From: an uncultured Erysipelotrichaceae bacterium
GTDB lineage: Bacteria > Bacillota_I > Bacilli_A > RFN20 > CAG-826
Assembly: GCA_902777015.1 (NCBI GenBank)
Contig: CACYSA010000006.1
Location: 33,502-97,501, forward strand
Direction of reading: 5' to 3'
DNA: 64,000 nucleotides
This document shows positions 4,564 through 41,279 of the stretch, in pieces; the first letter of the stretch is position 1; the number at the start of each line of letters is the position of its first letter. A program made the position numbers and the translations under genes. The notes beneath the pieces were generated by a model. It was given only the letters and a program-made list of their open reading frames with translations, had not been told where the DNA came from and did no database searches.

Positions 4564-6588
4564 ATGAAAAGCTCCCTAAACAAATTATCTTTACTTTTAA
4601 TTAGTATTGCTTTGATGAGTGGCTGCACTCGTCCGATTGCTAGTTCTTTAGACAATAATTCAAGTAACCCTAGTTCTTCTAGTGTGGAAGAAAAAATAAG
4701 CTCTTCTAATAATAGGAGCGAAAATAATACAACAAGTAGCGCAATTAGTAGTTCTTCAATTATGCCCACCACTAGCGTTAACACTAATCCTAATAATTGT
4801 AGTAATCATGAATTAGAAGAGACAGTAACTAAAGAAGCAACGATTATCGATAAAGGCGTTAAGCATTTTAAATGTCCTAACTGCCATGCTGAATTTGATG
4901 ATTATTTCTATAAACTAGATGAATTTGCGTTTGAAGACACCACTTTCATGGATGATGGTAACGAACATCAAATATTCATCAGTGGTCTTCTTCCTTATGG
5001 TTGCTCTGTTAAATATGAAAACAATACCTTAAAAGGTATTGGTTCTAAAGAAGCCACTGCGAAAATCTATGATGAAAACAACAATCTTCTTTTAGAAAAG
5101 AAAGCAAAAATCAATATCGTTCAAAATATTGGTTTACCAAATATCAAAATTGTGACTGAAGATGGTGCTGATCCTGATTGGCATTCAGTTAACGGAGAAA
5201 GACCATACAAGAACATGAACGTTTCTATTGATAACTGCGATTCCGCCTATGTTAAAAACAATATTGCGGGCGAGATTAAAGTAAGAGGCAATTCCACTAA
5301 TCAAGAATCTGTCGCTAAAAGAGCATTTCGTTTAAAGTTTTCTAGTAAAAATAATTTATTAGGTTTAAATAATGGTATTAAAGAAAAGAGCTGGGTCTTA
5401 TTAGCGGATTTCTTTGATCAATCTAGATTCCGTAATGAAACAGCCTTCACTATTGGTAATTCCTTATTTAATTATTCTGGTTTCTATTCTTCAGATTTTA
5501 AACATGTCACTTTATATATGAATGGGGAAAACCGTGGCGTTTACCTTTTAGCGGAACAACAACAAGCTAAAAAGGAACGTATCCCAATTAATGAGCCAGA
5601 AGACGCTAGTACGGTTAAGACTGGTTATTTAATTGAAATTGATGGTTTAGCCAGTCAAAACGGTAAGATTAATAACGATACTCATATCGGTACTCACGAA
5701 GGTGACCCATTCTTCACTACTGGTACAAGCTCTACAGGTGGCATGTCTGGAGGCTGGGGAGGCCAAGGCGAAGACTCCATTAACGGCGTTAATATCACAG
5801 ATAAAGCATATGTTATTAAAACCGATGTCTTTGGTGATGAACAAGTGCCATTTATTAGAGATTACACAAATAACGTTTTAAAGGCATTTAAAGGTTTGCT
5901 TAAAGGTGAAACAAGGCTAATTGTGGATGAAAACGGTGAACTTAAAGACAGCCCATACACCACTCAATACGAGACATTAAATTCTTATATTGATTTAGAT
6001 TCATTCTTTAGAATGTATGTTTTACAAGAATATTTAAAAGACTACGATGTCGGTTGGGGCAGTTTCTATATGTATGTTGATTTCTCCTCTAATAGTAAAG
6101 TTAAACGTTTAACCATGGGCGCGCCATGGGACTTTGACTTAGGTTTAGGTAATAAGCAAGGCTCCGGTGGCTGGGGAGGCTATGGAGGTCAAGGAGGAAG
6201 TAGCAGCGATAAAGATATCCCTACTTCTGGCATTTCCTCCACTAAAGACAATTTCTTAAATAGCAATGAGTACACTAACGGCATGACCACATTTAATCCT
6301 TGGTTATATATGCTTAGTCAAACTGATTTCTTCCAAAATATGATTAAAAAGTATTATTCTATTTTTGATAAGTCTAATATTTATGAAAGAGTGATAAGCA
6401 ATATAGCTTATGAACGCGTTGCCTTTGCGGAATCATTTAATGATAACCATGCTCGATATGGGAAAGGTTCATCTGGTTCAACATTAATGCAAACTAGACA
6501 GTATGATTCTCATAAAGACGCCACTGACTATTTAATCAAATGGTTAGGCGAAAGAAAGGCTTATTTAGATCAAAATTGGGGTAAATAG
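4564..6588 (+). CDS. CotH-like (atypical kinase fold) surface lipoprotein with Gly-rich inserts
   Basis: Lipobox LMSGC. Central block FRLKF...W.LL.....Q...RN..A......LFN......V.LY.NG...G.Y.L.EQQQ recalls the CotH family. Two GGWGGxGG glycine-rich insertions are present. Confidence 0.5.
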   Translation: MKSSLNKLSLLLISIALMSGCTRPIASSLDNNSSNPSSSSVEEKISSSNNRSENNTTSSAISSSSIMPTTSVNTNPNNCSNHELEETVTKEATIIDKGVKHFKCPNCHAEFDDYFYKLDEFAFEDTTFMDDGNEHQIFISGLLPYGCSVKYENNTLKGIGSKEATAKIYDENNNLLLEKKAKINIVQNIGLPNIKIVTEDGADPDWHSVNGERPYKNMNVSIDNCDSAYVKNNIAGEIKVRGNSTNQESVAKRAFRLKFSSKNNLLGLNNGIKEKSWVLLADFFDQSRFRNETAFTIGNSLFNYSGFYSSDFKHVTLYMNGENRGVYLLAEQQQAKKERIPINEPEDASTVKTGYLIEIDGLASQNGKINNDTHIGTHEGDPFFTTGTSSTGGMSGGWGGQGEDSINGVNITDKAYVIKTDVFGDEQVPFIRDYTNNVLKAFKGLLKGETRLIVDENGELKDSPYTTQYETLNSYIDLDSFFRMYVLQEYLKDYDVGWGSFYMYVDFSSNSKVKRLTMGAPWDFDLGLGNKQGSGGWGGYGGQGGSSSDKDIPTSGISSTKDNFLNSNEYTNGMTTFNPWLYMLSQTDFFQNMIKKYYSIFDKSNIYERVISNIAYERVAFAESFNDNHARYGKGSSGSTLMQTRQYDSHKDATDYLIKWLGERKAYLDQNWGK

Positions 6589-8381
6589 TGAAAATTAAAC
6601 AAATAGCGTATTTATCATTATTAACGATTTTACTTGCTAGTTGTAACACTACCGCTAGTTCTTCTTTAGAACAGCCTTCTTCTCATAATGAAAGTAGTCA
6701 CACTACTTCAAAAACAAGTGAAACACCAACTTGTGACCATGATTTTGTTTTACAAGGTAATGTCGATGACGTGCCAACGATTATTAAGGCTAATGGCAGA
6801 GAATATGTTTGTTCAAAATGTGGCGCGAGTAAATATGAAGGAGCAAGTTACGATTTAAATGAATACGCTTTTAAAGATCAAACTTTTGTTTATGATGGCC
6901 AAGAACATAAGCTTGTCATTAAGGGCATGATTCCTTATGGCTGCACTGTGGAATATGAGAATAACAATCTCGAAGAGATTGGTAGTAAAGAAGCTATCGC
7001 TAGAATCTATGACAGTAATCATAAATTAATTGATCAAAAGAAGGCCACTATTAATATTATTGAAAACACTGGTTTATATAACATTTATGTCGATACATCT
7101 AATGTTGAAATAGTTTCTAAAAAAGATTATGTTCCGATGACTTTATCGACTGATAATTGTCCTGAAATATATAAAAAGAACGGCCTTACTGGTGGTATTA
7201 GATGCCGTGGCAATGGCACATATACATATGACAAGAAAGCATTCCGCATTAAATTTGATAGTAAAGCGAATATGTTTGGCTTAAATGATAATGCGAAAAC
7301 TAAAAGCTGGGTCCTATTAGCGGAATATGCTGACCAATCTATGGTAAGAAATATGACTGCCTTATATATGGGCAATTCATTATTTAATTATTCAAATAAT
7401 TATGCTTCTGATTATATGCCTGTTAATTTATATCTTAACGGTAAATATCATGGTCTATACGTTTTAGCGGAGCAACAACAGGCTAATAATAACCGTATTA
7501 TAATTAATGAAGCGGCCACTGATTATAAGGGCACTGATATTGGTTATTTAATAGAACTTGATAGCAAAGCGGATGAAGAAGATTATTACATCACTGTGGG
7601 TAAAATTAATTCTTCTACTTGGGGACAACAAAGTGGCGACCCATTAGATGGTGTGATGATACCTGGTAAAAAATACGCGATTAAGACAGATTGCTATTCT
7701 GACACTCAAGTTAATTTTGCTAGTAAATATCTAAATAATGTCTATTACGCTTTATATAAAGCGGTACACGGAGATGGCTTATTTGTTTTAGATGAAAACA
7801 ATGATTTAAAAGCTTCTCCATATAAGAGCCAATATGAAACACTTAATTCCATCATTGATTTAGAATCAGTCTTTAAGATGTATCTATTATGTGAATATAT
7901 GAAAGATATCGATGTTGGTTATGGTAGTTTTTATATGTGGGTGGATTTCTCCTCCACTAGTATTTATAAGCGTTTAACTTTTGGTGCACCTTGGGATTTT
8001 GACTGGAGCAGCGGTAATGTGAAAGACACATATGTTTCTAGTAGCTCTGGAGAATATAATTCACAAGCAAGAGGCAATTATAATCCTTGGTTCTTTATGT
8101 TTTCTAAAACAGATTTCTTTAAATCAATGTTTAAAAAATATTACAGTGTCTTCAAGAATTCACAAATCTTAGAAGGGGCGATTGATCAAGCAAATTATTA
8201 CGCCGCGGCTTATAAAAGTGAATATGAAAAGAACTACGCTAAATGGAAAAACTTAGGTCAAATTACTCCTGCTTACACTCCAGAAAGCGCTCGTAATTTC
8301 AAAAAGCATCAAGACGCTGTTGATTATCTTACAAATTGGTTAAAAAATAGAAAACAATCTCTCGATAACATATTCAAATAA
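6588..8381 (+). CDS. CotH-like surface lipoprotein, tandem paralog
   Basis: Lipobox LLASC. Collinear with the upstream gene and shares CotH-like blocks (AFRIKFDSK, WVLLAEYADQS, LYLNGKYHGLYVLAEQQQ). It lacks the Gly-rich inserts. Start overlaps the stop of the upstream gene. Confidence 0.5.
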   Translation: MKIKQIAYLSLLTILLASCNTTASSSLEQPSSHNESSHTTSKTSETPTCDHDFVLQGNVDDVPTIIKANGREYVCSKCGASKYEGASYDLNEYAFKDQTFVYDGQEHKLVIKGMIPYGCTVEYENNNLEEIGSKEAIARIYDSNHKLIDQKKATINIIENTGLYNIYVDTSNVEIVSKKDYVPMTLSTDNCPEIYKKNGLTGGIRCRGNGTYTYDKKAFRIKFDSKANMFGLNDNAKTKSWVLLAEYADQSMVRNMTALYMGNSLFNYSNNYASDYMPVNLYLNGKYHGLYVLAEQQQANNNRIIINEAATDYKGTDIGYLIELDSKADEEDYYITVGKINSSTWGQQSGDPLDGVMIPGKKYAIKTDCYSDTQVNFASKYLNNVYYALYKAVHGDGLFVLDENNDLKASPYKSQYETLNSIIDLESVFKMYLLCEYMKDIDVGYGSFYMWVDFSSTSIYKRLTFGAPWDFDWSSGNVKDTYVSSSSGEYNSQARGNYNPWFFMFSKTDFFKSMFKKYYSVFKNSQILEGAIDQANYYAAAYKSEYEKNYAKWKNLGQITPAYTPESARNFKKHQDAVDYLTNWLKNRKQSLDNIFK

Positions 8382-12921: not shown

Positions 12922-12998
12922 TGGTGGACCATCCAGGACTTGAACCCGGAACATAACGGTTATGGGCCGTCCACTCTAACCGATTGAGTTAATGGTCC
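12922..12998 (-). tRNA. tRNA with CAT anticodon (Met, or Ile2 by lysidine)
   Basis: Reverse complement gives GGACCAT acceptor, anticodon loop CCCATAA, T-loop GGGTTCAAGTCC and CCA. Confidence 0.75.
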
Positions 12999-13274
12999 AT
13001 TTAAACCTCTTGATTGACGATCCATATCTTCCACAACGATGTCGAAGATTTCGCCTAAGGTCGCACAATGTGAGAGTAAATCCCATGGCTCATTTGTGTG
13101 GAAATGGATTTTAATCATTTCATCATCACCAACACAGATAAGAGAATCACCTTTCATGTTTTCTAAAATCCAATCAGTAATTTCATCTTCATCAAGACCT
13201 TGACCTTCAATTAATAATTGGGTGTCATAACGGTATTGTAACATGGCTCTACCCCCTATTTTATATTTAATCAC
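12960..13274 (-). pseudogene. Probable remnant of a fatty-acid kinase subunit gene (DAK2-domain FakA/YloV C-terminus), trapped between tRNAs
   Basis: Only the C-terminal-like portion of FakA is present (GDSLICVGDDEMIKIHFHTNEPWDL...IVVEDMDRQ), with no upstream N-terminal domain. The last 13 codons overlap tRNA(CAT). The 5' side abuts tRNA-Ala. Confidence 0.35.
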
Positions 13275-13426: not shown

Positions 13427-15064
13427 TTATAATTTTGTAATCGTTATTTCCGCAAAATTCTCGTATAAAGAACCAACTTGGAAACTAAATCCTAAATCGC
13501 TCTTATCATTAAGTCTAGCGCCGTTAACGAATTGTCTAGAGAATTTAGACATGGAGAATGATTCGCCTTTTTTGAATAAATCGTTTTTAGATAAGTTGCT
13601 ATCAGACGATGGTTTATATGTAGCGTTTGTGTTATTTCTAATTAACTGCAAGATGTTGTAATTATAATTATTTTCTCCTAAAGGCGCTAAGTAGCCTTCA
13701 GTCTCTTCTGTTCCATCATAATAAGAATTAGACATCGCTAAAACAACCGCACCATTATCTTTTTTAACGTTGTTAGTAATTGAATAAATTGTTGGATTAG
13801 ATAATGGGTAATAGATTAATCTAGCGTCAACGTGCCATACACGTATACCACCAGCATTTACTCCAACAGGGCCTTTATTTCTATAAGAGTATTTTGTATC
13901 GAATTCATTTAGACCAGTTGGTGTGTAGTATTCTAATAAGAGATATTCATCAAATGGTGATCTAGATTCACCAGTATTATTTGGGCTTAGTAAAATCATT
14001 TCACCAGTTTCACTAAATGGTCTGAGATTAATAGTCATCGTATCTGTTGGCATATAAGCTTTACCCCAGCCTAAAGCAAAAGAAGAGAAAGCATCATGAC
14101 CACCAACGTTTTTATCTTGCATTGAAAAACCTGCAGCGGGTGAATATTTATAAGAAGAATAATCATAATAGTCTTCTAAACCAAACATATGACCAGTCTC
14201 ATGGATATATGAATGAGCGTCAACATAGCAGTGTGATGTATCACCACTTCCATAGGAAGAAGTTAAACAACGAGAGAAAGAATCACTCTTGCTATACATA
14301 AAGTCATAACTTGCCCAGAAGAAAACATTTGGTCCAGGACTAACTTTATTTTTTAATGATTGATCTTGAATCCAGAAGCAATACGCCCAGAGGTTAGTAT
14401 AAGAATCACGACCATAGGCGACATAATCAGGAGCGGCATAAATAAACATTACACCATCTAAATAGCCGTCTTTGTCTTTATCATAATTCGCTCTTGAATC
14501 AGATGAATTGCTCGCGAAATACCAGTTAGTGGCGTTTTTCACTAATTGGGTTGTTCTAGATGTATCACTATCAGTAGCGTAATATTGATAACTATTACTT
14601 ACTTCGTACCATTCAGAAACTTTACCAGTAATTGTTAAAGCACCATGGCTTTCTTCTTCATAGAAAGATTTAACACTTCTCCAACCGGTTTCATCGTTAG
14701 TGCCAAAATAACTCTTCTCAATATCTTTTCTAACATCGGCTTTTTTAGATGTTGAAATAAAAGCGGAAGAATCAGAGAACCAAACTGGAATAACTAAAAT
14801 ATGAGCTTCGCCCACACATGGCGTTGATGAAATAGCATAAACATTGTTTTGGACATAGTCCATATAATTATATAAACCCTTTTTAGGTTCAATTTCATTT
14901 GGCGCTAAAGATGTATTAGCGGGTTGATATGATTCGCTAGGCACATAAGTATATGGACTAGATGGATCACCATTTAAAAAAGAAAAAAGCGCATCTAAAG
15001 CATCACACGAAGTGAGTGATAGAGCCATAGCGATTGGTAAACAAAGTAATAATTCCTTTTTCAT
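13427..15064 (-). CDS. Zinc metalloprotease lipoprotein, HExxHxxGxxD type (M6/InhA-like)
   Basis: Lipobox LTSCD. Active-site motif HETGHMFGLED. Confidence 0.5.
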   Translation of the reverse strand: MKKELLLCLPIAMALSLTSCDALDALFSFLNGDPSSPYTYVPSESYQPANTSLAPNEIEPKKGLYNYMDYVQNNVYAISSTPCVGEAHILVIPVWFSDSSAFISTSKKADVRKDIEKSYFGTNDETGWRSVKSFYEEESHGALTITGKVSEWYEVSNSYQYYATDSDTSRTTQLVKNATNWYFASNSSDSRANYDKDKDGYLDGVMFIYAAPDYVAYGRDSYTNLWAYCFWIQDQSLKNKVSPGPNVFFWASYDFMYSKSDSFSRCLTSSYGSGDTSHCYVDAHSYIHETGHMFGLEDYYDYSSYKYSPAAGFSMQDKNVGGHDAFSSFALGWGKAYMPTDTMTINLRPFSETGEMILLSPNNTGESRSPFDEYLLLEYYTPTGLNEFDTKYSYRNKGPVGVNAGGIRVWHVDARLIYYPLSNPTIYSITNNVKKDNGAVVLAMSNSYYDGTEETEGYLAPLGENNYNYNILQLIRNNTNATYKPSSDSNLSKNDLFKKGESFSMSKFSRQFVNGARLNDKSDLGFSFQVGSLYENFAEITITKL

Positions 15065-15173: not shown

Positions 15174-15797
15174 CTAATTATTTTCTTTAGCTTTTCTTCT
15201 GGCTTCTTTTTGTTTTTGAAGTTCGATATTATTGTTATAGATTCTTAATAATCTTGGTAAATTATACTTCAGTATAAAAGCGGGTAAAACAATTAATATA
15301 GCGTTGACTACAGCGATTGGTAAAGCAATGGTTAACCAAATATTTGATTGTCCTAAATACATCTTCCAATCTAATAAAATGATTAAAAATGAAGTTGGAA
15401 CGCTCATCAAGTGGATAGCGATACCATATCTTGCTTCTAAAATGAAACGGGCAATATATTCGTTATCAAATGGGTTAACGACTTTGTTTTTATGAAAGGC
15501 AGTGAAACTGCCTAATTCAGGAATATAATCTTTCCATTTTTGGACACCTAAAAATGTATAGAACTTCAGTTCTTTTTCACTAGTTCTTGTAAACCAATAA
15601 TCTTTTTGAAACCATTTTTCTGGTAGCTTTCTAATGATTAAGGCCACTAAAGCGTCAATAAGTATCACGATGATTGTTAACGCTAATGTGAAGATAATAT
15701 AAAGCCACCACTTATCATGGTAAATAGGATTAAGGAAGATATTTAACGATGCTACCGAAATGACACCGATAGCAATAATAATGAGATATAAAACCAT
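15174..15797 (-). CDS. Small polytopic membrane protein, co-transcribed with the GT8-acyltransferase
   Basis: Start overlaps the upstream stop by 1 bp. Four or five TM helices. Confidence 0.4.
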   Translation of the reverse strand: MVLYLIIIAIGVISVASLNIFLNPIYHDKWWLYIIFTLALTIIVILIDALVALIIRKLPEKWFQKDYWFTRTSEKELKFYTFLGVQKWKDYIPELGSFTAFHKNKVVNPFDNEYIARFILEARYGIAIHLMSVPTSFLIILLDWKMYLGQSNIWLTIALPIAVVNAILIVLPAFILKYNLPRLLRIYNNNIELQKQKEARRKAKENN

Positions 15798-17617
15798 TAT
15801 TTAGCCTCGGTGAGATAGGTGAGTGGCTCACCATATACTTTTTCATAGACTTCTTTACAAAGTCTTTCATTTTCTTTTTTCATATTAGTGACATTTTCTT
15901 GTTGGCTTAATCTTTCTTCTGGATAGATAGCGGGTAAGAAATGCAATGTATATGCTTGAATAATAGAGCCATCTTTCGCTATTTTATCAGTATCTCTCAT
16001 CGTAATAAATGTTGGAATAACTGGAACATTATTACGCGCCGCAAAGATAAATGCGCCTTGTTTTAATGGCTTTGGTTTACGATAATTCCACCACATTGAT
16101 TGTTCTGGATAAATGAGGATGTAATTACCTTTATGAAGAATTGTATCAACAGCGTTTTGGAACGACCTTAAAACTGTTGGGTTAGTGGCAAGAGGTAAGG
16201 TATTACAGTTTCTTAGGAAATAACCAAAAATACCTGGCATTGTATAGTTACCTTCTCTAATCACTTTATATAGTTTCTTGCATCTAGCGTATTTTCTAAG
16301 CGCTAAATGGAGTGGAACACTATCAAATGGAGAAAAGTGGTTTGCGGTAATGACTGCCCCACCTTTGACTCTTTTAAGATTTTCAACACCTTCAAAGCCA
16401 TCGATGACAATCGCACCTTTTTTAATCATATGTTTAAAGAAACGATATGAATAATAATTGGCCCACATTGTTTTGACTTTGCTAGTCCATTTTTTTCTTA
16501 AATAGTCAACATCTCCTGGCATTAAGTGACGATATGGGGGATCATTTTCCACATCGACATCGAATTTACCGAGTCTTTCAAGTTCGATAATTTTATTAAC
16601 AACTTCTCTTCTTTCAGGAGAGAGCTTAGACATAATCTCATCAACTTTTTTGATCTTTTGATCCATTGTTTCGTATTTTTCTTTAACGGGTTCTCCATTA
16701 ATCTTTTGATGATATTCTTCCGCTTTAGAAGCTTCTAAATTACAGAATGCTTTTACTCCATCAACGCCTTGAAGAATCTTTTCGGTGACTTCTTGAGGAA
16801 TAGCCTCTCTATTTTTCAAGATTTGGTTTTTAACACCAGCGAGTTCAGCGTATTTGAAGAATTCTTCTTCATACATGATGTTTTCTAAGTTCCAAGGTTT
16901 GAACATTAAGTTATAGTGAATTAAAGATGGCTCATTCACTCTTTCACCAAGTGGCATGACATTCCATTTTTTATCTAATAATAATGTCTTATCTTTGCAA
17001 AGATAATTTAATAAATCTTGGTCTTGAGCAACTTTAAATGTCACTCTCTTTAATAGATTAACAACGCGTTTTTCTAAGCCGAATTCTCTGAGCTTTTTAA
17101 AATTCATTAATAAAACACCAGCGTTAAAGTATTTGGTGTGATCCATTTCAATGACTTTATGAACATAATTAATGAATTCATCATAAAGTTGGACGGATGC
17201 ATCAGGCACCGCACCAACGAGGTTATCACCTAAATCGGTGAAATATAATTTAGCAATATCATCACGGACAACGATATCGCTATCTAAATATAATCCTTTA
17301 TTAAATAAAGGGAATAAATCTGGTAAGAATAAACGGTAATAAGTTGTGATTGTGTAATAATCACGGACATCTAACTTGACTGATAATGAATGCACTTTAA
17401 GTGTGACATCATAAAACCAAATAAAGATGTTTTTGTTGTTTTGAAATTTGCGAAGGGCTTTCTTGCTTTTTGAAGATAAGCCATCGTGAAGAATGGTCAA
17501 GTGATATTTATACTTCTTAGAAGCATGTCTAACGATACTAGCAATAGTCACTGACAGATAAGGGATGTAGTTATCGTCCACAGTGAAGAAGAGACGAACT
17601 ACTTTCTGTTGGGCCAT
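15797..17617 (-). CDS. Bifunctional GT8 glycosyltransferase / PlsC-like lysophospholipid acyltransferase fusion
   Basis: The N-terminus carries GT8 hallmarks (FTVDDNYIPYLSVTIASI, DSD, NAGVLLMN). The C-terminus has the PlsC H(x)4D motif (ANHFSPFD) and FP/PEG-like acyltransferase blocks. Confidence 0.6.
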   Translation of the reverse strand: MAQQKVVRLFFTVDDNYIPYLSVTIASIVRHASKKYKYHLTILHDGLSSKSKKALRKFQNNKNIFIWFYDVTLKVHSLSVKLDVRDYYTITTYYRLFLPDLFPLFNKGLYLDSDIVVRDDIAKLYFTDLGDNLVGAVPDASVQLYDEFINYVHKVIEMDHTKYFNAGVLLMNFKKLREFGLEKRVVNLLKRVTFKVAQDQDLLNYLCKDKTLLLDKKWNVMPLGERVNEPSLIHYNLMFKPWNLENIMYEEEFFKYAELAGVKNQILKNREAIPQEVTEKILQGVDGVKAFCNLEASKAEEYHQKINGEPVKEKYETMDQKIKKVDEIMSKLSPERREVVNKIIELERLGKFDVDVENDPPYRHLMPGDVDYLRKKWTSKVKTMWANYYSYRFFKHMIKKGAIVIDGFEGVENLKRVKGGAVITANHFSPFDSVPLHLALRKYARCKKLYKVIREGNYTMPGIFGYFLRNCNTLPLATNPTVLRSFQNAVDTILHKGNYILIYPEQSMWWNYRKPKPLKQGAFIFAARNNVPVIPTFITMRDTDKIAKDGSIIQAYTLHFLPAIYPEERLSQQENVTNMKKENERLCKEVYEKVYGEPLTYLTEAK

Positions 17618-17831
17618 AAATAAAAGCCTCCTTTAGGCAGTATCAATATTAGCAAATGACTTTTTAGAAATATTCCTATTTGTCATTTTTGTTACTCTAC
17701 TTAAGTGGACTCTAAAAGTAGAGCTGAAAAAAACTATAGTATAGTTAAAATATTTAGTCAAATCCTAAAGGATTGACACAAAGTGACAAGCGTAACATTT
17801 AGATAAGCTCGTATAGTTTATCAATATTCCA

Positions 17832-19757
17832 CTACTCAAGTTCTATGATAGTGAATGACTTATTAGTGTTGCTATAAAGATAGATTTTATTGTCTTTAAA
17901 TAGACCAAATTCAGAGTCATAAAGACTTTCAGTGGCGCAGTAAGTAGTACGTTCACCACTATTTGTGTCTACTTTAATAATGAATGAATGATATTGATCA
18001 TCTGATAAGACAATATAGATATTATCCTCACCAGGGAAAGTTAGCATTTTAGTATCATAACTTGATAATTTTATATCAATATATTTTTCACATGATGGTT
18101 TTTCCCAGTCTTTCACATTAACTAAATAGCTATTACTAGAAACAATATAGCCATTGTGATCGAGATAAACAGTCGCAAAGCTTGGGCCTTTATCCAGTTT
18201 TCCATTGCGGCTTTTGTCTTGCACATACTGTCCATCTTTATAGATAAAGAAATTAGGATTAATACCACTGGTGATTTGTGTGTTATTAGTGATGAGCATA
18301 TCTTGTTCTTTATCATAAACTAGATAAGAACCATGATAGAAAAAGTGTTCTAAACCCGCGAAGATTTCAGATGTTTTAGTGGTCGGATGATAAATATAAA
18401 GTGGGACCCATTGTCCACGTCCTGGACAAACGATAATATCTCCTCTTTTATCAATCACTGTGTAATCAGGTGCGGTATTCATATTAATTTCATCAATGAT
18501 TTCTAAAGATGTTTTATCAATGACATAGATGATACCCCTATTATCTGATTCAGTATGATAGCCAGTAGATGGGGCTAAAGTTGTGATTGTAATGTGATAG
18601 ACACCATCATGAACGAGTATTTTATTAACATCACCCTCAACATCAAATTGTTTAAGGACATTTAAAGTGGATAATTCTAAAATAGTAACCTTATTATCTG
18701 CACTAAAAATATAACGATCATTGTCTAAATCATAAGCGTGTGGTAATTTTGATTTAGTTTCAATTTTATCATAGGCCACTGTACCTTGTTTTTTTGCGGT
18801 TCCAGTTTCAATTAAAGAAACATTCATTGAATAAGATTTGCCCGCGAAAGAATAGTTAAATTTACCTGTTTCTTTATCATAGACACCATCTTTACCTAAG
18901 ATTTCAATTTCAAAAGGATTATTAGGGCTAGTAAGATAGGCCATAACCCTGTTATCCGGTATATAATTAACGAAATAATCATCACTATAGACATTGCTTC
19001 TTGCTTCATATCCTTTACCATATTCAAGGACAAAGGCAAAGTCTTTTTCAACAAAGTCATAAGTTTTTTGATCGACCTTTAAATAACTATTAGCGTCGAT
19101 TGTTCTTTTTGTATAAATATCACCATAACCATTGACTGCGTAAACAATTCTTAAAGGCATAGAAACACCAAGTAGTTTTTGTATATAGCTATCAAAAACC
19201 ATTGATACTGTGGTAATTCTTTTTTCATAAAAGTTGACTAAGAAATCGACATTTTCAAGGTCGAATGACATTTCTTTATCTAATTCATCTAAAGCCTCAC
19301 TATCAAATAAGTCGGTTTTAGAAGAAGCTTCTTTAAGATTTAAAGTAAACGAGAATGTTTGATCTTCTTTAGAATATGAAGAGCTTTTGAAATATTTAGC
19401 AATATCTATCGATTCATTATTAAATAAAGCGGAATTATCTTTATCGATATATACTTTATAGCCATCACCATCGAGGATTGATTTATCTTTAGTGGTAATT
19501 TCTTTTAAAGATGGACGGTTATATGGGTATGACATCACCATTTCACTATCAGAATAAAAACTCATTAGTGATGTCGTTGTGGCTCCACTGATGATTCTCA
19601 TTGTGAAATCGTTATTTGGTGAATTGAAGAAAGTTTCAACTTCTTTATAAGCAGATTTATAATTTAATTCTTTTTGTCCATTATTGGTGTTATTGCACGC
19701 CACAACGGCGGTAGAGAGGATAATAATTGGTAATATTTTTTTATTCATAGGGAGCAC
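17832..19757 (-). CDS. Large surface lipoprotein, unknown function
   Basis: Lipobox VVACNN. 641 aa, repetitive beta-rich composition. Confidence 0.45.
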   Translation of the reverse strand: MLPMNKKILPIIILSTAVVACNNTNNGQKELNYKSAYKEVETFFNSPNNDFTMRIISGATTTSLMSFYSDSEMVMSYPYNRPSLKEITTKDKSILDGDGYKVYIDKDNSALFNNESIDIAKYFKSSSYSKEDQTFSFTLNLKEASSKTDLFDSEALDELDKEMSFDLENVDFLVNFYEKRITTVSMVFDSYIQKLLGVSMPLRIVYAVNGYGDIYTKRTIDANSYLKVDQKTYDFVEKDFAFVLEYGKGYEARSNVYSDDYFVNYIPDNRVMAYLTSPNNPFEIEILGKDGVYDKETGKFNYSFAGKSYSMNVSLIETGTAKKQGTVAYDKIETKSKLPHAYDLDNDRYIFSADNKVTILELSTLNVLKQFDVEGDVNKILVHDGVYHITITTLAPSTGYHTESDNRGIIYVIDKTSLEIIDEINMNTAPDYTVIDKRGDIIVCPGRGQWVPLYIYHPTTKTSEIFAGLEHFFYHGSYLVYDKEQDMLITNNTQITSGINPNFFIYKDGQYVQDKSRNGKLDKGPSFATVYLDHNGYIVSSNSYLVNVKDWEKPSCEKYIDIKLSSYDTKMLTFPGEDNIYIVLSDDQYHSFIIKVDTNSGERTTYCATESLYDSEFGLFKDNKIYLYSNTNKSFTIIELE

Positions 19758-20871: not shown

Positions 20872-21573
20872 CTAAAGAAAGAATAAAGAGAAGGCGATTA
20901 TATACTGCGCCATATAATATGTGACCGAATTAGAAATAAGATCAACTGGTCTTTCTTTTCCTTGACCAAAATATGTGCCACTTAAGATTAAATCAGAAAT
21001 AGCAAACAAAACCGCACCAGCGAATAACATATTAAATGAAGCAACTTGGAAACCATTATAAATACATAAGAACAATGTTGTGCCTAATGTAGTGAATAAT
21101 AACGAACCATAAATAAAGCAAATAAGTTTATATTCACGGTATTTCATCTTTAATGGTCTTTCCATCACTAAGACAATAGCCCCACAGAATAAGCCAAACA
21201 ATATTGGTCCTGCGAAGGCAAACCATGGATAGTTATTATATAAAGTGGTCATCATACCAACGATATATAAGACATGACCGAGAGCGAAAGAAATGAATCC
21301 AGAGAAAGTAAACATTCTATCGCGCTCTTTAAAAACATATTTAAGTTCTAACCAGATATCCCCTAGCATACCTAACGCTAAAGCGCAGATGACAAATCCA
21401 CCAAAAGGATGATTACCGTTTTGATAATTAGAATAAGCCGCTAAAGCGATAAATATAAAAGATGTGAATGATTTAATGAGTGCTTCTCTAAGAGAATAGC
21501 CTCTAACCTTTTCGATAAGAAAAAGAGTTAAACATAAGGCACCAAAAACTAATAAGATAATACAAATTGCCAT
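20872..21573 (-). CDS. Polytopic membrane protein (YhhN/lysoplasmalogenase-like?)
   Basis: Eight TM helices in about 233 aa. The family assignment is weak. Confidence 0.3.
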   Translation of the reverse strand: MAICIILLVFGALCLTLFLIEKVRGYSLREALIKSFTSFIFIALAAYSNYQNGNHPFGGFVICALALGMLGDIWLELKYVFKERDRMFTFSGFISFALGHVLYIVGMMTTLYNNYPWFAFAGPILFGLFCGAIVLVMERPLKMKYREYKLICFIYGSLLFTTLGTTLFLCIYNGFQVASFNMLFAGAVLFAISDLILSGTYFGQGKERPVDLISNSVTYYMAQYIIAFSLFFL

Positions 21574-21574
21574 A

Positions 21575-22981
21575 TTATTTTAAAAACCTTCCTAACGTTT
21601 TCTTTTTCTTTTGATTATATGGATGCTCTCTTAGTGAGAGATTAAATCTAGTGGAACCATATAGGACTGTAGAAGGATGAGTGAATTCTCTAAATCCCCA
21701 AATGCCGTGATATGCCCCCATACCTGAATGACCTGTACCATTAAATGGCACACCTTTAACCATTAGGTGGAGACATACTTCATTAACACATCCACCACCA
21801 TATTGCTGTGTGGCCATGACACGTTTTGCCCATTTCTTATTTTTAGTAAAGATATAGAAAGCCAAACCATGTTCTCTTCTAGCAATAGTATCTAATAATT
21901 GATCTATTTCATTATCTTTATATGGAACGATTGGTAAAAGTGGTCCAAATATTTCATGATTAACAATTGGTTCATCGATGTTTACTGGATAAATAATTGT
22001 TGTGGAATATTTGCATGTATTCTCATCACCTTCACCACCGAAAAGTATTCGATCTTTGTATTGTTCTGCTTCTTGCTTGATACCATCAAACGCTCTTCTA
22101 TTGATGAGTTTTGGATATTCTTCATTAAGATATGGCTTTTCACCAATTTGACGGATGATTTCTTTTTTTAATTCATTAATGAATTGTTCCGCAATAGATT
22201 CTTCCACTGCTACTTGGTTAATGTTGATACATACTTGTCCGGAATTGCATATTTTAAAGAAGGCTATCTTTCTAGCGGCATCTTTTAAGTCTGCATCTTT
22301 TCTAATGATGCACCAGTTACCAGTTTCCCCACCTAATTCCAAAGTCACTGGTGTGAGGCTTTTACTAGCCATTTCCATGACGTGTTTAGCGACATTTGGT
22401 GAACCTGTATAAAAGATTTTATCCACTCTTTCTTCTAAACAATAATCAGCAACATCATGACCACCATCAATGACAGTAATATATTTTTCATCAAAATAGC
22501 GGGAGATGATATCCTTTATTGCCGCTGTTGTAGAAGCGGATTTACTACTGGCTTTAATAATTGCAGTGTTACCACCCGCAATGGAAGCAGCAAGCACACC
22601 TAATGATAATAAAACTGGGAAATTAAAAGGAGCGATGATTAAAGAAACGCCATATGGTAACTTATATACTCTAGTAATTAAGCTTGGAAAACAGGCTAAA
22701 CCTGAGAAATGTTTTTCTGGTTTGGACCATTTCTTTAAGCCTTTGATATATTCATTAATCTCCATGATGACATCACCGATGTCACAGAAATAGGCTTCTA
22801 CTTCACATCTTCCTAAATCTTCATGGAGGGCATTGATTAATTGATCTTGGTTTTCTAATATTGCTCTTTTTAATGTTTTGAGCTGTTCTTTTCTAAACTT
22901 AACGCTTAATGTTTCGTTAGTTAAAAAGTATTCTCTTTGTTTAAGAACAATATTGTGGATTTCTTCTTTACTAAAAGACAT
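21575..22981 (-). CDS. NAD(P)-dependent aldehyde dehydrogenase (class 3-like)
   Basis: ELGG and GSPNVAKHV blocks, catalytic Cys region CNSGQVC. The start was moved to MSFSKEEI, which has an AAAGGAG RBS. Confidence 0.7.
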   Translation of the reverse strand: MSFSKEEIHNIVLKQREYFLTNETLSVKFRKEQLKTLKRAILENQDQLINALHEDLGRCEVEAYFCDIGDVIMEINEYIKGLKKWSKPEKHFSGLACFPSLITRVYKLPYGVSLIIAPFNFPVLLSLGVLAASIAGGNTAIIKASSKSASTTAAIKDIISRYFDEKYITVIDGGHDVADYCLEERVDKIFYTGSPNVAKHVMEMASKSLTPVTLELGGETGNWCIIRKDADLKDAARKIAFFKICNSGQVCININQVAVEESIAEQFINELKKEIIRQIGEKPYLNEEYPKLINRRAFDGIKQEAEQYKDRILFGGEGDENTCKYSTTIIYPVNIDEPIVNHEIFGPLLPIVPYKDNEIDQLLDTIARREHGLAFYIFTKNKKWAKRVMATQQYGGGCVNEVCLHLMVKGVPFNGTGHSGMGAYHGIWGFREFTHPSTVLYGSTRFNLSLREHPYNQKKKKTLGRFLK

Positions 22982-23177
22982 AAAAACACTCCTTTTATTA
23001 TTTTGAGTAATTGTTATATGTGTTTCTTGTAATTTTAGTTTAGCATATATACGCACATGAAAAAACAAAAATATTTGTTGTTAAATAATGATGAAAGTTA
23101 AGCATTAATCGATATTTATGGCTATCTTGTTTCTAATTAATGTTATAATATAGACGATTAGAAAGGACATCTCCCTT

Positions 23178-23955: not shown

Positions 23956-25599
23956 TTAATTTTTGTTTTTGCGTTTTCTTTCACGCTTATTTGAATACAT
24001 TAAGTGATCAGCGTGGACCAAAACATCTTCAGCGTAAATATCGATTTCTTTATCATATGCCGCTATGCCAAGAGAAACTGCAACTTTTTCATAGCCTTCT
24101 TTAGCAAAGCTAGACATCTCTTTACACTGTTTATAGAACTGATCTTTTAGTTCTTCTCTATTTTTATAATCTTCATCAAACAAGATGGCGACAAATTCAT
24201 CTCCACCAATACGATAGATATCACTATGAGAGAACACTTTACTCATTAATACACTAGCCTTTTTAAGATAGACATTACCTTTATCATGTCCGTATTTATC
24301 GTTAATCTTCTTTAAACCATCACAGTCAAACATCGCAATAGCAAATTCCACTTCTTCTTTGTTATTGATACGTCTTTGTATTTCTTCGATAGCGCGATCA
24401 AATGAGCTCTTGTTTTTAACTGAAGTTAAAGCGTCAGAATAGGCAAGATTATTTAAGTTTCCGATGTAGGAACCTAAATTATCTATTAATTGTGACATTG
24501 TTTTTGTTAATACACCAATCTCATCATTACGGTCGTTCTTAAGTTCAACTTGGTAATTGCCTTTATTGATTTCTTCTGCGGCGAGAGTTAACTCTTTTAA
24601 TGGTCTAGTAAATCTTCTAGTAAGAATGATTGTTAAAACCGCAATTACAATGATAATCGCTAAAGCGGCAATAATAATTTGCCAGACAATTAACTGCCAA
24701 GTATTATTTATTTCCGCTGTTGGAACACAGACAACGATGCTCATATTATTAGAAAGATCAAGCCAATGTGCGTGTTTATTGACACCTTGGAAAGTATAAG
24801 CTAGGTGTTGTTTGCCACTAGAAAAGTCTCTATAGAATCCATCAGGGATGCTTGGTCTTTCTTCTGCTGGCATGCTCAAGATATCGATGTATGGGTGATA
24901 AATGATACTTCCATCTGAATCTTCGATGATATATGCAAACCCTGATTTTAAAACTTTGATGTCGTCAATTTGTTCACCTAATGTGTGATAGCTAATTTCA
25001 ATTCCCACTACGCCGATAAAAGTGCTATGACGGTAAACAGGGATATTATAAGAAATAACAATCGCATCTAGACTGTCAGTAATGTATGGTGAAAGCCAAA
25101 CTGGTTGGCCAGTACTTTTAGGGGTATAGAACCAAACGCATTCATTGTGATCATCACTAATGTCAGTGACTTCGTGTTCTACGAAGCCTTTACCATCAAG
25201 GTTAGTGAACCAGAAACCTTTTTCGTTTGTGGTTTCACTAATCGAAGGATCGATACGATAGTAATAAGTTAAGACACCATTCGTGTTTTCGCTCGCCTCA
25301 CCGAAGAATAATTTTGCGTCTTCCATGTGCTTAGAAAAACCAGTGTTAAAATTGCTATCATCAATTTCATCAAGCTTTCTATCGATGAGTGTTGAAACAG
25401 TGTTAACTGATTGTTCAACACTCTTTAAATAATAGTTAATATTATTCTTACCAGTTTCACAAAGTAACGCTAATGATTGTTCGACACTTCGATGACCAAA
25501 ATTTGCGACATAGACAGAACTAATAAAAGCAGTAACAAAAATCGCAATAATAATTGAGATAATATTTAACAATGTTATCTTTGTTCTAATGGAATGCAT
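23956..25599 (-). CDS. Sensor diguanylate cyclase (extracytoplasmic sensor, HAMP, GGDEF)
   Basis: N-terminal TM helix, about 270-aa extracellular domain, second TM, then GGDEF domain with RIGGDEF. Confidence 0.75.
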   Translation of the reverse strand: MHSIRTKITLLNIISIIIAIFVTAFISSVYVANFGHRSVEQSLALLCETGKNNINYYLKSVEQSVNTVSTLIDRKLDEIDDSNFNTGFSKHMEDAKLFFGEASENTNGVLTYYYRIDPSISETTNEKGFWFTNLDGKGFVEHEVTDISDDHNECVWFYTPKSTGQPVWLSPYITDSLDAIVISYNIPVYRHSTFIGVVGIEISYHTLGEQIDDIKVLKSGFAYIIEDSDGSIIYHPYIDILSMPAEERPSIPDGFYRDFSSGKQHLAYTFQGVNKHAHWLDLSNNMSIVVCVPTAEINNTWQLIVWQIIIAALAIIIVIAVLTIILTRRFTRPLKELTLAAEEINKGNYQVELKNDRNDEIGVLTKTMSQLIDNLGSYIGNLNNLAYSDALTSVKNKSSFDRAIEEIQRRINNKEEVEFAIAMFDCDGLKKINDKYGHDKGNVYLKKASVLMSKVFSHSDIYRIGGDEFVAILFDEDYKNREELKDQFYKQCKEMSSFAKEGYEKVAVSLGIAAYDKEIDIYAEDVLVHADHLMYSNKRERKRKNKN

Positions 25600-27211: not shown

Positions 27212-28417
27212 TTAGAAGTCTTCCAAGACACATTCGACAAATAAAGAAGCGAGAAGAGGATCGAACTGGCTACCACTACCTTCTTTAATTATTTCAATGG
27301 CTTTCTCTTTTGAGTAAGCTTTCTTGTAAACACGATCAGAAATTAAAGCGTCGTAGACATCCGCTAAAGCCATTATTCTAGCTTCTAAAGGTATTTCCTC
27401 ACCCTTTAATCTATCAGGATAGCCAGTGCCGTCCCATCTTTCATGATGATGTCTAGCAATATTATATGCCACATCAGCGTAATCTTTATTTTCAAGACTA
27501 TAAATTGTTTTCTTAACTATGTTAGCGCCATAGATTGAATGGTTTTTAATGATTTCATATTCATCATTTGTTAATCTTGCCGGCTTATTTAAAACGATGT
27601 CTGGTATTTTGATTTTGCCGATATCGTGTAGAGGGGCTGCTAAAACGACATTGCGGAAATAGTCATCACTGATACGAGAAAACTTATCAAGCTTTTTCAT
27701 CTTACCGATTAAGCGATAAACATAGTCTCCGGAACGAACAATATGCCCACCTGTGTTTTCATCTCTTTCTTCGACGACTGTCGCTAAAGCCGTAATGACT
27801 CCACGTTGAATAAGTTCTACTTTAACACTAGCGTTAATTTCTCTAATATTTCTCACGCAAATAAAACCATATAAGACCGCACCCATGAGTGTGAATGTTC
27901 CAATGTTCATCACGTCTAATCTGAATGCAGAAGGAGCTTTATAAAAATAAGAAACAAGAAGATACGAGACACAAATTGCTAGCATAAAGAAATACATTCT
28001 TAATGGTCGATCGTCAATGGTTAAAGGTAAAAGTGAGACGAATACTACAACACTGGTAGCGGGTATTTCAAAATTGCTTGTTTGGACGCTTAGGATAATA
28101 GCGTATGAACATAGTAAGAGCATTTGTGCATAGCACAATATCATGTTAGGAATAATAACGTCTTCTTTAAATATCTTAATTATGGCAAAAACAAAAATAA
28201 GCGAACTGCCAATAAATAAGATGAGATACGGAAGCCAAGTATCGCCTTTAGTAATAATTGTGTACAAAAAGAACAAGAAGCCCATTACTGAGGCAATAGT
28301 AGATGTAATGCGTAATATCCTTCTATTTCTTTTCCAAACTAAATGCTGAATATTGTGAAATTCGTCATTACTAACACCACATGATAAAACAAAATTCTTG
28401 ATTTTAGAGTTTGCCAT
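27212..28417 (-). CDS. Membrane-anchored HD-GYP phosphodiesterase
   Basis: N-terminal polytopic domain, then HD-GYP with HHERWDGTGYP. Confidence 0.75.
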   Translation of the reverse strand: MANSKIKNFVLSCGVSNDEFHNIQHLVWKRNRRILRITSTIASVMGFLFFLYTIITKGDTWLPYLILFIGSSLIFVFAIIKIFKEDVIIPNMILCYAQMLLLCSYAIILSVQTSNFEIPATSVVVFVSLLPLTIDDRPLRMYFFMLAICVSYLLVSYFYKAPSAFRLDVMNIGTFTLMGAVLYGFICVRNIREINASVKVELIQRGVITALATVVEERDENTGGHIVRSGDYVYRLIGKMKKLDKFSRISDDYFRNVVLAAPLHDIGKIKIPDIVLNKPARLTNDEYEIIKNHSIYGANIVKKTIYSLENKDYADVAYNIARHHHERWDGTGYPDRLKGEEIPLEARIMALADVYDALISDRVYKKAYSKEKAIEIIKEGSGSQFDPLLASLFVECVLEDF

Positions 28418-29055: not shown

Positions 29056-30711
29056 TCACAGCAGTCCGCGTTTTTTATCTTCTTCTTCTTGTAATAAACG
29101 GAAATTAACTTTTCCAAGCATAGTTAAAGGTAATTCATCTCTAAATTCAATCTCTGTTGGAACTGACCATCTAATGAGATATTTACGACACGTGTCGAGT
29201 ATTTTTTCTTTCATTGCGGTTTCATCCACTACTTTAGCGACAACGAAAACCTTTAAAGAATGTTGTAATTTAGCGTCAGGAATACGGATAGCCGCACAAG
29301 CGGATACTTCAGGCATTGATTCAATTAATTGTTCGACTTCACTTGGGAAGACAGCAACGCCAGAGACTTTAACAACTCTCTTTTTACGTTGTTTAAAGAA
29401 GATGAAATCATCTTGATCCATATAGCCAAGGTCGCCTGTATATAAGTAACCATCTTTAATGCAATTCTTAGTGCCTTCTTCATCTTGATAATAACCAAGC
29501 ATAATAGCGCCACTTTTGAAGATGATTTCGCCTAATTCACCACGTGGTACTTCATTACCTTTTTCATCCACTATTTTAAATGTCGCTTCTGGCATGGCTT
29601 TACCTAATGAACCTTTTCTATTAGCGTCAAATGTATTAACGCAGTTAACCGCAATAGCTTCAGTTAAGCCATATCCTTGGAATAAGCGACAAATTGAGCC
29701 ACCATCAGACATCGCTTTATTAAATCTTTCTTCTAAGTCACTAGGCATAGAGTCACCACCACAGAAACAGCATCTGAGATATTTAAGATTTTTAGATTTA
29801 ACAAATGATGGTTCATTTAATAATTTTTCATAAATTGTTGGTACGCCACACATACATGTGAGTTTTGTATCATTCATCGCTTTCACTACCATCTTCGGTT
29901 TGAATTTAGGCACTAAGATTGAAGAAAATGAATTCACTAATGGAGCGTGCATTGTCATACACAAACCAAAACCATGAAAACTTGGTAAAACACTAAGCAT
30001 TTTATTGCCACGCATTTGTTCAGGTTTAAGCGCCATGAATGAATATGAATATTGCGCTATATAGTTAAAAGCGTAATCACTTAGACAAATTGTTTTTGGT
30101 TTACCAGTTGTGGAACCACTGTGTAATAACACAGAGCATCTCTTATTATCCACTGTTGCTACTGGTACATCTTTACCAGTTGGTTTTAATTGATAAGTAT
30201 ATTTAAAACCATCGAATTTAAAGTGCTTAGGCATTTTACCTAATTTACGACGGATTCTAAAGTTCATGAAATTGTGGTAGATGAATTTACTTAGAAGAGG
30301 TAAATCATCTTCAATACGAGTGACATATATACGGTCAGCGATTTCACGATATTGTTTAACTTCTTTAGCGATTCTTTGTTCGAATAAGAAAGCGTATTTA
30401 GTGTTAGTCTTATCCATGATTTGTTTCACTTGGTTAAATGGTGTGAATGGATGGATTAAGTTACTAGTTGCGCCGATCTTATTAATCGCATAGAAAAGCA
30501 CTATTGTTTCAGGGATATTTGGTTGAGCAATGACGATGACATCATTTTCTCTAATACCTAAACGATGATATAAAACATCCGCGGTCATATCGACGCGTTT
30601 TAATAATGATTTAAAAGAAATTCTTTTACCTTGATAATAAAGGGCCAAATCATGTGGTGCTTTATTAACGGCCTCCTTGAGAGCGCCATACATTGTTAAA
30701 TCTGTCATCAT
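29056..30711 (-). CDS. AMP-forming acyl-CoA synthetase / fatty-acid--CoA ligase
   Basis: AMP-binding motif LHSGSTTGKPK and C-terminal YTGDLGY. Confidence 0.75.
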   Translation of the reverse strand: MMTDLTMYGALKEAVNKAPHDLALYYQGKRISFKSLLKRVDMTADVLYHRLGIRENDVIVIAQPNIPETIVLFYAINKIGATSNLIHPFTPFNQVKQIMDKTNTKYAFLFEQRIAKEVKQYREIADRIYVTRIEDDLPLLSKFIYHNFMNFRIRRKLGKMPKHFKFDGFKYTYQLKPTGKDVPVATVDNKRCSVLLHSGSTTGKPKTICLSDYAFNYIAQYSYSFMALKPEQMRGNKMLSVLPSFHGFGLCMTMHAPLVNSFSSILVPKFKPKMVVKAMNDTKLTCMCGVPTIYEKLLNEPSFVKSKNLKYLRCCFCGGDSMPSDLEERFNKAMSDGGSICRLFQGYGLTEAIAVNCVNTFDANRKGSLGKAMPEATFKIVDEKGNEVPRGELGEIIFKSGAIMLGYYQDEEGTKNCIKDGYLYTGDLGYMDQDDFIFFKQRKKRVVKVSGVAVFPSEVEQLIESMPEVSACAAIRIPDAKLQHSLKVFVVAKVVDETAMKEKILDTCRKYLIRWSVPTEIEFRDELPLTMLGKVNFRLLQEEEDKKRGLL

Positions 30712-40937: not shown

Positions 40938-41279
40938 CTATCCATAAAATCCTACGACTGTCATTCGCGAAATACTGATTATCATTTCCCCCTTGGAAAT
41001 AATCATTGGTTGATAAGTCGTAGAAATTGAATAAATTATTTCTTCACCAAAAGTTGGTGATAGATTTTCATCACAGTTAAATGTCACGTTATACATGGTT
41101 TCGATACGATTTTTAAAATTGTCATCAATAATTCCTGTTCGAGATATTAAATAGGAAATATTGCTCGATTTAGCGTCGAGGGAACTAAAGACACTTTGAA
41201 TGGAAATGAGATCCGCGCCGAAAAGGAAATACATCGCCACGAAAATCATTGATAACAAAAGACCGATTTTATATGACAT
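40938..41279 (-). CDS. TadE-like / pseudopilin-like protein
   Basis: N-terminal hydrophobic helix, small soluble domain. Lies within the pilus operon. Confidence 0.35.
   Translation of the reverse strand: MSYKIGLLLSMIFVAMYFLFGADLISIQSVFSSLDAKSSNISYLISRTGIIDDNFKNRIETMYNVTFNCDENLSPTFGEEIIYSISTTYQPMIISKGEMIISISRMTVVGFYG

Follow-up and report, generated by a model that had tools for sequence, protein, structure and literature searches.

A GT8 glycosyltransferase–acyltransferase fusion from an uncultured Erysipelotrichaceae bacterium and its candidate role in a modular glycolipid pathway

We analyzed a 64,000-nt stretch of contig CACYSA010000006.1 (hereafter the window; G+C content ∼33%) from the metagenome-assembled genome (MAG) GCA_902777015.1 of an uncultured Erysipelotrichaceae bacterium, with attention to a gene that encodes a family 8 glycosyltransferase (GT8) joined to an acyltransferase module, here termed AT_A. 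The fusion gene is preceded by the ribosome-binding site AAAGGAGG upstream of its ATG and is followed by a gene for a small membrane protein of the CrtO family, the ATG of which begins on the last base of the fusion stop codon (TAATG overlap). The features of this two-gene unit, by window position and strand, are as follows.

15174–15797 (−): CrtO-family membrane acyltransferase-like gene, 207 amino acids, four hydrophobic segments, Pfam PF18927
15797–17617 (−): GT8–acyltransferase fusion gene, an open reading frame (ORF) of 606 amino acids with an ATG start, Pfam GT8 and PF01553
15800–16621 (−): acyltransferase module AT_A, residues 333–606, matching stand-alone proteins of 270–300 amino acids
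16322–16342 (−): catalytic N-H427-x4-D432 motif, NHFSPFD in translation
16622–16888 (−): helices following the GT8 domain and the fusion junction, residues 244–332, including a low-confidence linker (residues 312–327)
16889–17593 (−): GT8 domain with predicted GT-A fold, residues 9–243
17276–17284 (−): DxD motif D112-S-D114, translating to DSD
17733–17761 (−): promoter-like site TTGACT-17-TATAGT located 5′ of the two-gene unit, 10/12 in a consensus scan and a pattern match only

Both domains of the fusion scored above their Pfam cutoffs, with Glyco_transf_8 (PF01501) covering residues 9 to 243 (E = 5.6e-47; 160.9 bits versus a cutoff of 24.3) and Acyltransferase (PF01553) covering residues 409 to 538 (E = 8.7e-13; 48.7 bits versus a cutoff of 23). 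A preliminary description of this DNA, which had placed a GT8 enzyme and an H(x)4D acyltransferase on one polypeptide and had proposed domain searches as a check of the C-terminal region, was borne out in both respects, and the motifs of both halves were intact. In the GT8 half, the sequences DDNY, D112-S-D114, QDQD, and H234-YNLMF-KPW242 could be read. An alignment of 69 sequences showed D112, D114, Q200, H234, and K240-P-W242 to be invariant, with D14 and D15 conserved in at least 90%. A phmmer search matched this half to LgtC (E = 2.4e-25), and in the HMMER alignment D112/D114 correspond to D103/D105 of LgtC, Q200 to Q189 (the position mutated in structure 1ss9), and H234 to H244. The AlphaFold2 model of the GT8 domain, in which the predicted local distance difference test (pLDDT) was mostly >90, was matched by Foldseek to the C-terminal domain of WbbM (6u4b, 1.5e-19) and to LgtC (∼30% identity, TMt 0.74–0.76), and the GT8 half is thereby modeled with a GT-A fold. 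Retaining (α) stereochemistry is a family-level property of GT8. The GT8 α-galactosyltransferases LgtC and WbbM (C-terminal domain) are the best sequence and fold matches and share the DxD, Q189, and H244 equivalents; they differ in acting on lipooligosaccharide (LOS) or O-antigen glycans and in having no acyltransferase domain.

The acyltransferase half consists of an N-terminal helix, an FDVDVENDPP loop, a cationic aromatic helix at residues 377 to 399, and the PF01553 core. In the same 69 sequences N426, H427, and D432 were invariant, as were E455 and E505. Block III (YPEQSMWWNYRKPKP) reads YPEQSMWWNY in comparison to the canonical FPEGTR, with P-E kept and G-T-R absent. The description of this half as PlsC-type was correct at the level of the PF01553 superfamily and the HX4D motif, but the protein is not a PlsC equivalog (27 bits against the TIGR00530 cutoff of 102.95). 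A PDB sequence search with the acyltransferase half gave no match even at E ≤ 10, and the Pfam search of the fusion gave no match to the PatA-type family PF03279, so that the likeness to PatA is at the fold level only. When residues 330 to 606 were modeled alone (pLDDT 90.2; predicted template modeling score, pTM, 0.88), the best Foldseek match was PlsC from Thermotoga maritima (5kym, 6.9e-7), followed by mycobacterial PatA (5f2z), with further matches to a plant glycerol-3-phosphate acyltransferase (GPAT; 1iuq, 1.2e-5) and human GPAT1 (8e4y, 4.1e-5). AT_A resembles T. maritima PlsC in Pfam family, fold, HX4D motif, and the N-terminal helices ahead of the catalytic core; it differs in its 19% identity, its TIGR00530 score, its altered block III, and its constant association with glycosyltransferases.

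The fusion lacks transmembrane helices (maximum KD19 = 1.13). The helix at residues 377 to 399 (WTSKVKTMWANYYSYRFFKHMIK), located before the catalytic core, contains five K/R, no D/E, and seven aromatic residues, and the net charge of the acyltransferase domain is +15. Hydrophobic-moment analysis of the fusion provided no strongly amphipathic helix, only this cationic aromatic one. By analogy, the helix and the charge fit the interfacial membrane binding known for PlsC and PatA, and the best reading of the sequence is that of a cytoplasmic, peripherally membrane-bound bifunctional enzyme. The AlphaFold2 model of the whole fusion, based on the 69-sequence alignment, had a pLDDT of 86.4 and a pTM of 0.54; because of the latter value, the model is best read as two confident domains of uncertain mutual orientation. 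The linker at residues 312 to 327 had a pLDDT of <50, and residues ∼300 to 335 form the sole poorly conserved, length-variable stretch in alignments of 20 and 69 sequences. On the basis of these sequences and models, we conclude that both catalytic domains of the fusion are intact.

The downstream protein matched the CrtO family (E = 8.5e-18; 65.3 bits versus a cutoff of 27.3) over profile positions 1–122 of 123, and the overlap of start and stop codons predicts that its gene is translationally coupled to the fusion. This protein had been described as a small polytopic membrane protein co-transcribed with the fusion; the overlap and the four hydrophobic segments agree with that account, which nevertheless left out its membership in a family of predicted acyltransferases. 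In 39 Bacilli-type loci the fusion is immediately followed by a CrtO-like gene (42–99% identity), at a spacing of −68 to +3 nt that narrows to −4 to +3 once a single locus is set aside. Since the genes further out vary, the fusion and the CrtO-like gene constitute a conserved two-gene unit. Residues D48, R56, W88, K89, E121, H129, and S132, among others, are common to the 39 CrtO-like partners.

Several neighboring genes were noted around this unit. Predicted lipoprotein ORFs (signal peptide with Cys) flank it at 13427–15064 (−) and 17832–19757 (−); one has a weak match to M6 peptidases, the other (641 amino acids) has no Pfam match, and conservation of the two extends only to the closest relative, L001. 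At 20872–23068 (−), a YhhN-family protein (lysoplasmalogenase family, PF07947) adjoins an aldehyde dehydrogenase. This pair directly follows the CrtO-like gene in six related loci (L002–L007), and YhhN alone was detected in four more (L008–L011); the two proteins could cleave plasmalogens and oxidize fatty aldehydes as a unit linked to the lipid cassette.

To define the distribution of the fusion, 5.8 billion proteins were searched, providing 1,674 matches of which 120 were listed. Both Pfam domains were present in all of the >100 full-length homologues among the 120 matches listed, which derive from independent contigs and assemblies and show 50 to 100% identity. Scanning the GTDB species, each represented by a single genome, identified a relative encoded at 328 loci. 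The contig index, when queried for an exact match to the window protein, had no entry. The best relative (98% identical) belongs to "Bacilli bacterium RGIG9223" from the rumen of water deer. Relatives are also encoded by MAGs of rumen and gut origin labeled Bacilli, Bacillales, or Erysipelotrichaceae, and many Clostridia MAGs contain versions with 43 to 47% identity. The homologues are named "1-acyl-sn-glycerol-3-phosphate acyltransferase" or "LPS biosynthesis glycosyltransferase" in the databases, and both names are probably misleading. Because the architecture and catalytic residues are kept across homologues and loci, a frameshift or assembly artifact, which the preliminary description had raised as a way in which its fusion could fail, is excluded, and the sequences lead us to conclude that the fusion is genuine and under selection.

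The two modules also occur separately. A phmmer search with AT_A against 1.84 billion cluster representatives yielded 1,030 matches (103 at E ≤ 1e-30), many of them stand-alone proteins of 260 to 300 amino acids that align with AT_A from end to end, its N-terminal helix and invariant FDxDVENDPP loop included; fusion to a GT2 (P0229) or a methyltransferase (P0191) was seen in further relatives. In one abundant gut organism, an unfused operon encodes a flippase-like protein (PF03706, with TIGR00374 above its cutoff), two GT8 proteins designated GT8a and GT8b, AT_A, and a second acyltransferase, AT_B. The unfused GT8b is 40% identical to the N-terminal half of the fusion and aligns to residues 1 to 276, and the unfused AT_A is 47% identical to the C-terminal half and aligns to residues 333 to 604. 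This Rosetta-stone pattern of fused and unfused forms implies that GT8b and AT_A share a pathway, with AT_B pairing with GT8a or with a family 4 glycosyltransferase (GT4). The unfused and partly fused cassettes (L081, 3206–7681; Clostridia loci L042–L080) are situated amid housekeeping genes (EF-P, RsmE, MutL, and pyruvate kinase), not in polysaccharide loci.

A second fusion is encoded elsewhere in the window, with a regulator gene divergent from it.

35621–36226 (−): HTH_3 (Xre-type) regulator, identified by Pfam
36335–38248 (+): GT4–AT_B fusion, 637 amino acids from the Met codon at 36335, with Glyco_transf_4, Glycos_transf_1, and PF01553 domains

The fusion at 15797–17617 had been called the first of two such fusions, a statement that does not hold: the second combines a GT4 of GT-B fold with an acyltransferase of an HX5D subfamily, and AT_A and AT_B share only 26% identity over 113 amino acids. 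The AT_B motif is NHTTSMGD (nt 37730–37753, +), compared to NHTQVFAD in stand-alone Clostridia homologues and to the canonical H-x4-D spacing. Full-length homologues of the GT4–AT_B protein, >100 in number, make up a conserved family in Bacilli, Izemoplasmatales, and Erysipelotrichia MAGs. Its GT4 half matched "CapJ" (PDB 3qhp, which we take to be a Helicobacter pylori protein) with E = 1.2e-39 over the C-terminal Rossmann half only. The name capJ is used for H. pylori HP0421, a cholesterol α-glucosyltransferase resembling the diacylglycerol α-glucosyltransferases of Gram-positive bacteria (PMC10489377). The nearest NCBIfam models were all of glycolipid GT4 enzymes (IagA/BgsA NF053513, GlcNAc-PG synthase, Mgs NF049988, and Dgs NF049987), and these matches suggest a resemblance of the GT4 half to lipid α-glucosyltransferases. 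The HTH_3 regulator (∼200 amino acids) is 46% identical to the regulator at the same position in locus L085 (13599–14189) and may be a dedicated regulator of the glycolipid pathway considered below. Paralogues of it were also seen near the GT8 fusion in L085 (6851–7444) and L046 (2482–2886).

Three independent observations indicate that the two fusions are functionally linked. First, a stand-alone AT_B lies directly 3′ of the GT8 fusion in ∼37 Clostridia loci and is 41 to 47% identical to the C-terminal half of the GT4 fusion in the window; a second, stand-alone GT8 often precedes the GT8 fusion in these loci. Second, a PF03706 (MprF-type) flippase-like gene adjoins the cassette in 14 of them, in 13 cases directly upstream. 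Third, a single locus of GCA_965339165.1 encodes the GT8–AT_A fusion, CrtO, DegV, the GT4–AT_B fusion, HTH_3, AA_kinase, and a GT4, with 54 to 59% identity to the window proteins. Proteins of the PF03706 family are proposed lipid translocases and are fused to glycosyltransferases in other taxa (10.1101/2022.03.11.483950). Within the conserved cassettes there was no polysaccharide polymerase, Wzx/ABC exporter, accessory Sec, adhesin-glycosylation machinery, or initiating phosphotransferase, and beyond the core of two to four genes the flanks are variable and housekeeping in nature.

Taking these results together, we favor with moderate confidence the interpretation that the GT8 fusion is a bifunctional enzyme of a modular pathway for acylated α-glycosyl membrane glycolipids. 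A glycolipid pathway is the best supported of the roles considered because the partners are of lipid type (the PF03706 flippase-like protein, DegV, the CGT/MGS-like GT4, and CrtO) and because the cassettes are free of polymerase, exporter, and adhesin-glycosylation genes. In such a pathway, the GT4 half of the protein encoded at 36335–38248 would make an α-glycosyl lipid, for example α-Glc-diacylglycerol. The GT8 domain, using a UDP-hexose and a metal bound by the DxD motif, would then add an α-linked hexose to the glycolipid head group. Next, the HX4D acyltransferase would move a fatty acyl group from an acyl thioester to the glycosylated product, most likely to a sugar hydroxyl as does PatA in the phosphatidylinositol mannoside (PIM) pathway; sugar-hydroxyl acylation is favored by this analogy and is consistent with the CrtO partner. 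Finally, by analogy with the 6-O-acylation of the staphyloxanthin sugar, the CrtO-family protein could add a further acyl group. Fusing the two enzymes would allow the glycosylated intermediate to be channeled straight to acylation at the membrane surface.

A number of points weigh against this interpretation. The proposal of a lipid acceptor that is both glycosylated and acylated, already made in the preliminary description, is the reading that gene context supports best, but the acceptor, sugar, acyl donor, and acylation position are all inferred, and the need for two or three acyltransferases fits no product that can be named with confidence. The GT4 half scored far below the cutoffs of the NCBIfam glycolipid-synthase models (35–51 bits versus 400–500). 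We know of no characterized GT8 that makes a glycoglycerolipid. In the window, the two fusions are ∼19 kb apart and tblastn found no PF03706 flippase-like or DegV gene; the uncertain orientation of the two modeled domains belongs with these points. The connection previously drawn to wall-less organisms such as Acholeplasma was unsupported, with the homologue carrier "Candidatus Onthoplasma" being filed under Christensenellales.

Known systems provide partial parallels to the proposed route. The mycobacterial PIM pathway (PimA/PimB′ of the GT4 family together with PatA) is likewise a cytoplasmic-face glycolipid route in which glycosyltransferases cooperate with an acyltransferase of the GPAT/1-acylglycerol-3-phosphate acyltransferase (AGPAT) fold. 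PatA acylates the 6-OH of mannose. This enzyme, which ranks second among the fold matches of the acyltransferase half, places a fatty acyl chain on a sugar of the glycolipid (PMC8519569). The PIM pathway differs in that PatA stands alone and belongs to a different Pfam family, the acceptor is a phosphatidylinositol mannoside, the glycosyltransferases are GT4 rather than GT8, and there is no fusion. In H. pylori, the GT4 cholesterol α-glucosyltransferase CGT (HP0421/capJ), matched here by the GT4 half of the second fusion, and CGAT (HP0499) provide a case in which a lipid is α-glucosylated and the glucose is then 6′-O-acylated (PMC10489377). There, however, CGAT is an outer-membrane enzyme of phospholipase-A1 type and not a PF01553 protein, the two enzymes are separate, the acceptor is cholesterol, and no GT8 is involved.

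The glucolipids of Acholeplasma are α-glycosyl-diacylglycerols, also found with an additional sugar-linked acyl chain. Acylated glycoglycerolipids and tri-acylated lipoteichoic acid (LTA) anchors have an established chemistry in low-GC Gram-positive bacteria, and we know of no sugar acyltransferase identified for either. The A. laidlawii synthases alMGS and alDGS differ from the proteins described here in being stand-alone GT4 enzymes, but the A. laidlawii glucolipids are of the same product type as predicted here, as are the tri-acylated glycolipid LTA anchors known in lactobacilli (PMC5805336). In the literature, with coverage incomplete and the result correspondingly weak as evidence, we found no characterized GT8–acyltransferase fusion, non-carotenoid CrtO homologue, or glycoglycerolipid sugar acyltransferase.

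The main alternative, which we regard as unlikely though not negligible, is that the acyltransferase half acylates a glycerol backbone, either in the manner of PlsC or GPAT or as a re-acylase of lyso-glycolipids. It would then supply or remodel the diacylglycerol moiety for the GT8, with the two cassette acyltransferases furnishing the sn-1 and sn-2 chains. The PF01553 domain with its HX4D motif, the best fold match to T. maritima PlsC, and the NCBI label of the homologues as 1-acyl-sn-glycerol-3-phosphate acyltransferases are consistent with such a function, and the cassettes contain exactly two glycosyltransferases and two soluble acyltransferases, numbers that fit a diglycosyl-diacyl product. 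The sub-cutoff TIGR00530 score and the block III sequence lacking the canonical G-T-R argue otherwise, the fold match to PatA, which acylates a sugar, is almost as good, and AT_A is tied by fusion and adjacency to glycosyltransferases rather than to pls genes, with no phosphatidate phosphatase present in the cassettes.

It is improbable, in our estimation, that the target is instead a glycan or glycoprotein of the cell surface (such as a teichoic-acid-like polymer, capsule, or serine-rich adhesin) to which the GT8 adds a sugar that the acyltransferase then O-acylates. The closest structurally solved GT8 enzymes do act on LOS and O-antigen glycans (LgtC and WbbM) or on a serine-rich adhesin (GlyE), and the cassette of the window is situated between lipoprotein genes. 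Nevertheless, the cassettes lack polymerase, exporter, accessory Sec, and initiating phosphotransferase genes, their flanks are variable and housekeeping, and their partners are of lipid type. In addition, the characterized PF01553 enzymes, to our knowledge, place long acyl chains on lipid or lipid-precursor acceptors.

We consider it very improbable that the fusion and the CrtO-like protein form a staphyloxanthin-like pathway to a carotenoid glycoside ester, in which the glycosyltransferase glycosylates a C30 carotenoic acid and CrtO acylates the sugar. The CrtO family is named after the staphyloxanthin sugar acyltransferase, and membership of the downstream protein in PF18927 speaks for this possibility; staphyloxanthin synthesis by CrtQ and CrtO also resembles the route favored here in that a lipid is glycosylated and its sugar is then acylated by a small CrtO-family membrane protein. 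However, no CrtM/N/P/Q-type carotenoid genes were detected in the 64-kb window (non-overlapping ORFs of at least 120 amino acids scanned) or in the regions flanking related loci, CrtQ of staphyloxanthin synthesis is a glycosyltransferase of family GT2 and not GT8, the GT8 is fused to a second, soluble acyltransferase, and the hosts are rumen and gut MAGs that are probably anaerobes. A negligible probability remains for an assembly or frameshift artifact, or a decaying pseudogene joining two genes: unfused GT8b followed by AT_A occurs in another lineage, but the reading is refuted by conservation (one ORF with both catalytic motif sets invariant in >100 independent assemblies, and a relative at 328 genome loci) and opposed by the confident models (pLDDT values of 86 and 90 for the full-length protein and its acyltransferase half, respectively).

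Returning to the acylated glycolipid pathway, its enzymes are of known kinds (GT8, the lysophospholipid acyltransferase superfamily, and CrtO) arranged in an uncharacterized, widespread, and modular cassette. We tentatively suggest, as a possibility about which we are doubtful in this full form, a hitherto unrecognized lipid pathway widespread in gut and rumen Firmicutes in which each glycosyltransferase is coupled with its own acyltransferase (GT8b with AT_A; GT4 or GT8a with AT_B) and, together with a CrtO-like or MprF-type flippase-like protein, yields a multiply acylated diglycosyl lipid. If correct, this scheme would identify the sugar acyltransferases for acylated glycoglycerolipids of the Acholeplasma type and of tri-acylated LTA anchors or, alternatively, would bring to light a class of poly-acylated glycolipids that is new and might have innate immune activity in the gut. 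The fusion and its interchangeable partners give a defined set of genes, open to experiment, that occurs in hundreds of species from gut and rumen, and confirmed products would be candidate ligands of host lipid-sensing receptors and possible markers for these uncultured lineages.

Several other features of the window were recorded. At 29056–31523 (−), the gene for an AMP-binding (acyl-activating) enzyme shares 4 nt with that for an HGSNAT_cat/Acyl_transf_3-type membrane protein, and the two products may be another pair for acyl activation and transmembrane acyl transfer. Cyclic-di-GMP-type signaling is unusually dense for 64 kb, with three GGDEF proteins, of which one also has dCache and HAMP domains, plus two proteins of the HD_5 (HD-GYP-like) type, located as follows.

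23956–25599: GGDEF/HD_5 signaling protein
27212–28417: GGDEF/HD_5 signaling protein
31638–32780: GGDEF/HD_5 signaling protein
51504–52895: GGDEF/HD_5 signaling protein
59103–60140: GGDEF/HD_5 signaling protein

A 104-amino-acid ORF within a tRNA cluster (12960–13274, −) overlaps tRNA-Met (12922–12998) and probably represents a spurious frame or a fragment of a gene. CotH kinase-like proteins of 674 and 597 amino acids are encoded in tandem at 4564–8381 (+), with the start of the second (6588) being the last base of the first stop codon. A five-gene run at 41269–45178 (−) surrounds an ATPase of T2SSE (secretion/pilus) type, with no Pfam match for the remaining four products, and at 60153–62192 (−) a BPD_transp_2 ABC permease is fused to Peripla_BP_4 in a 679-amino-acid protein beside an ABC ATPase.

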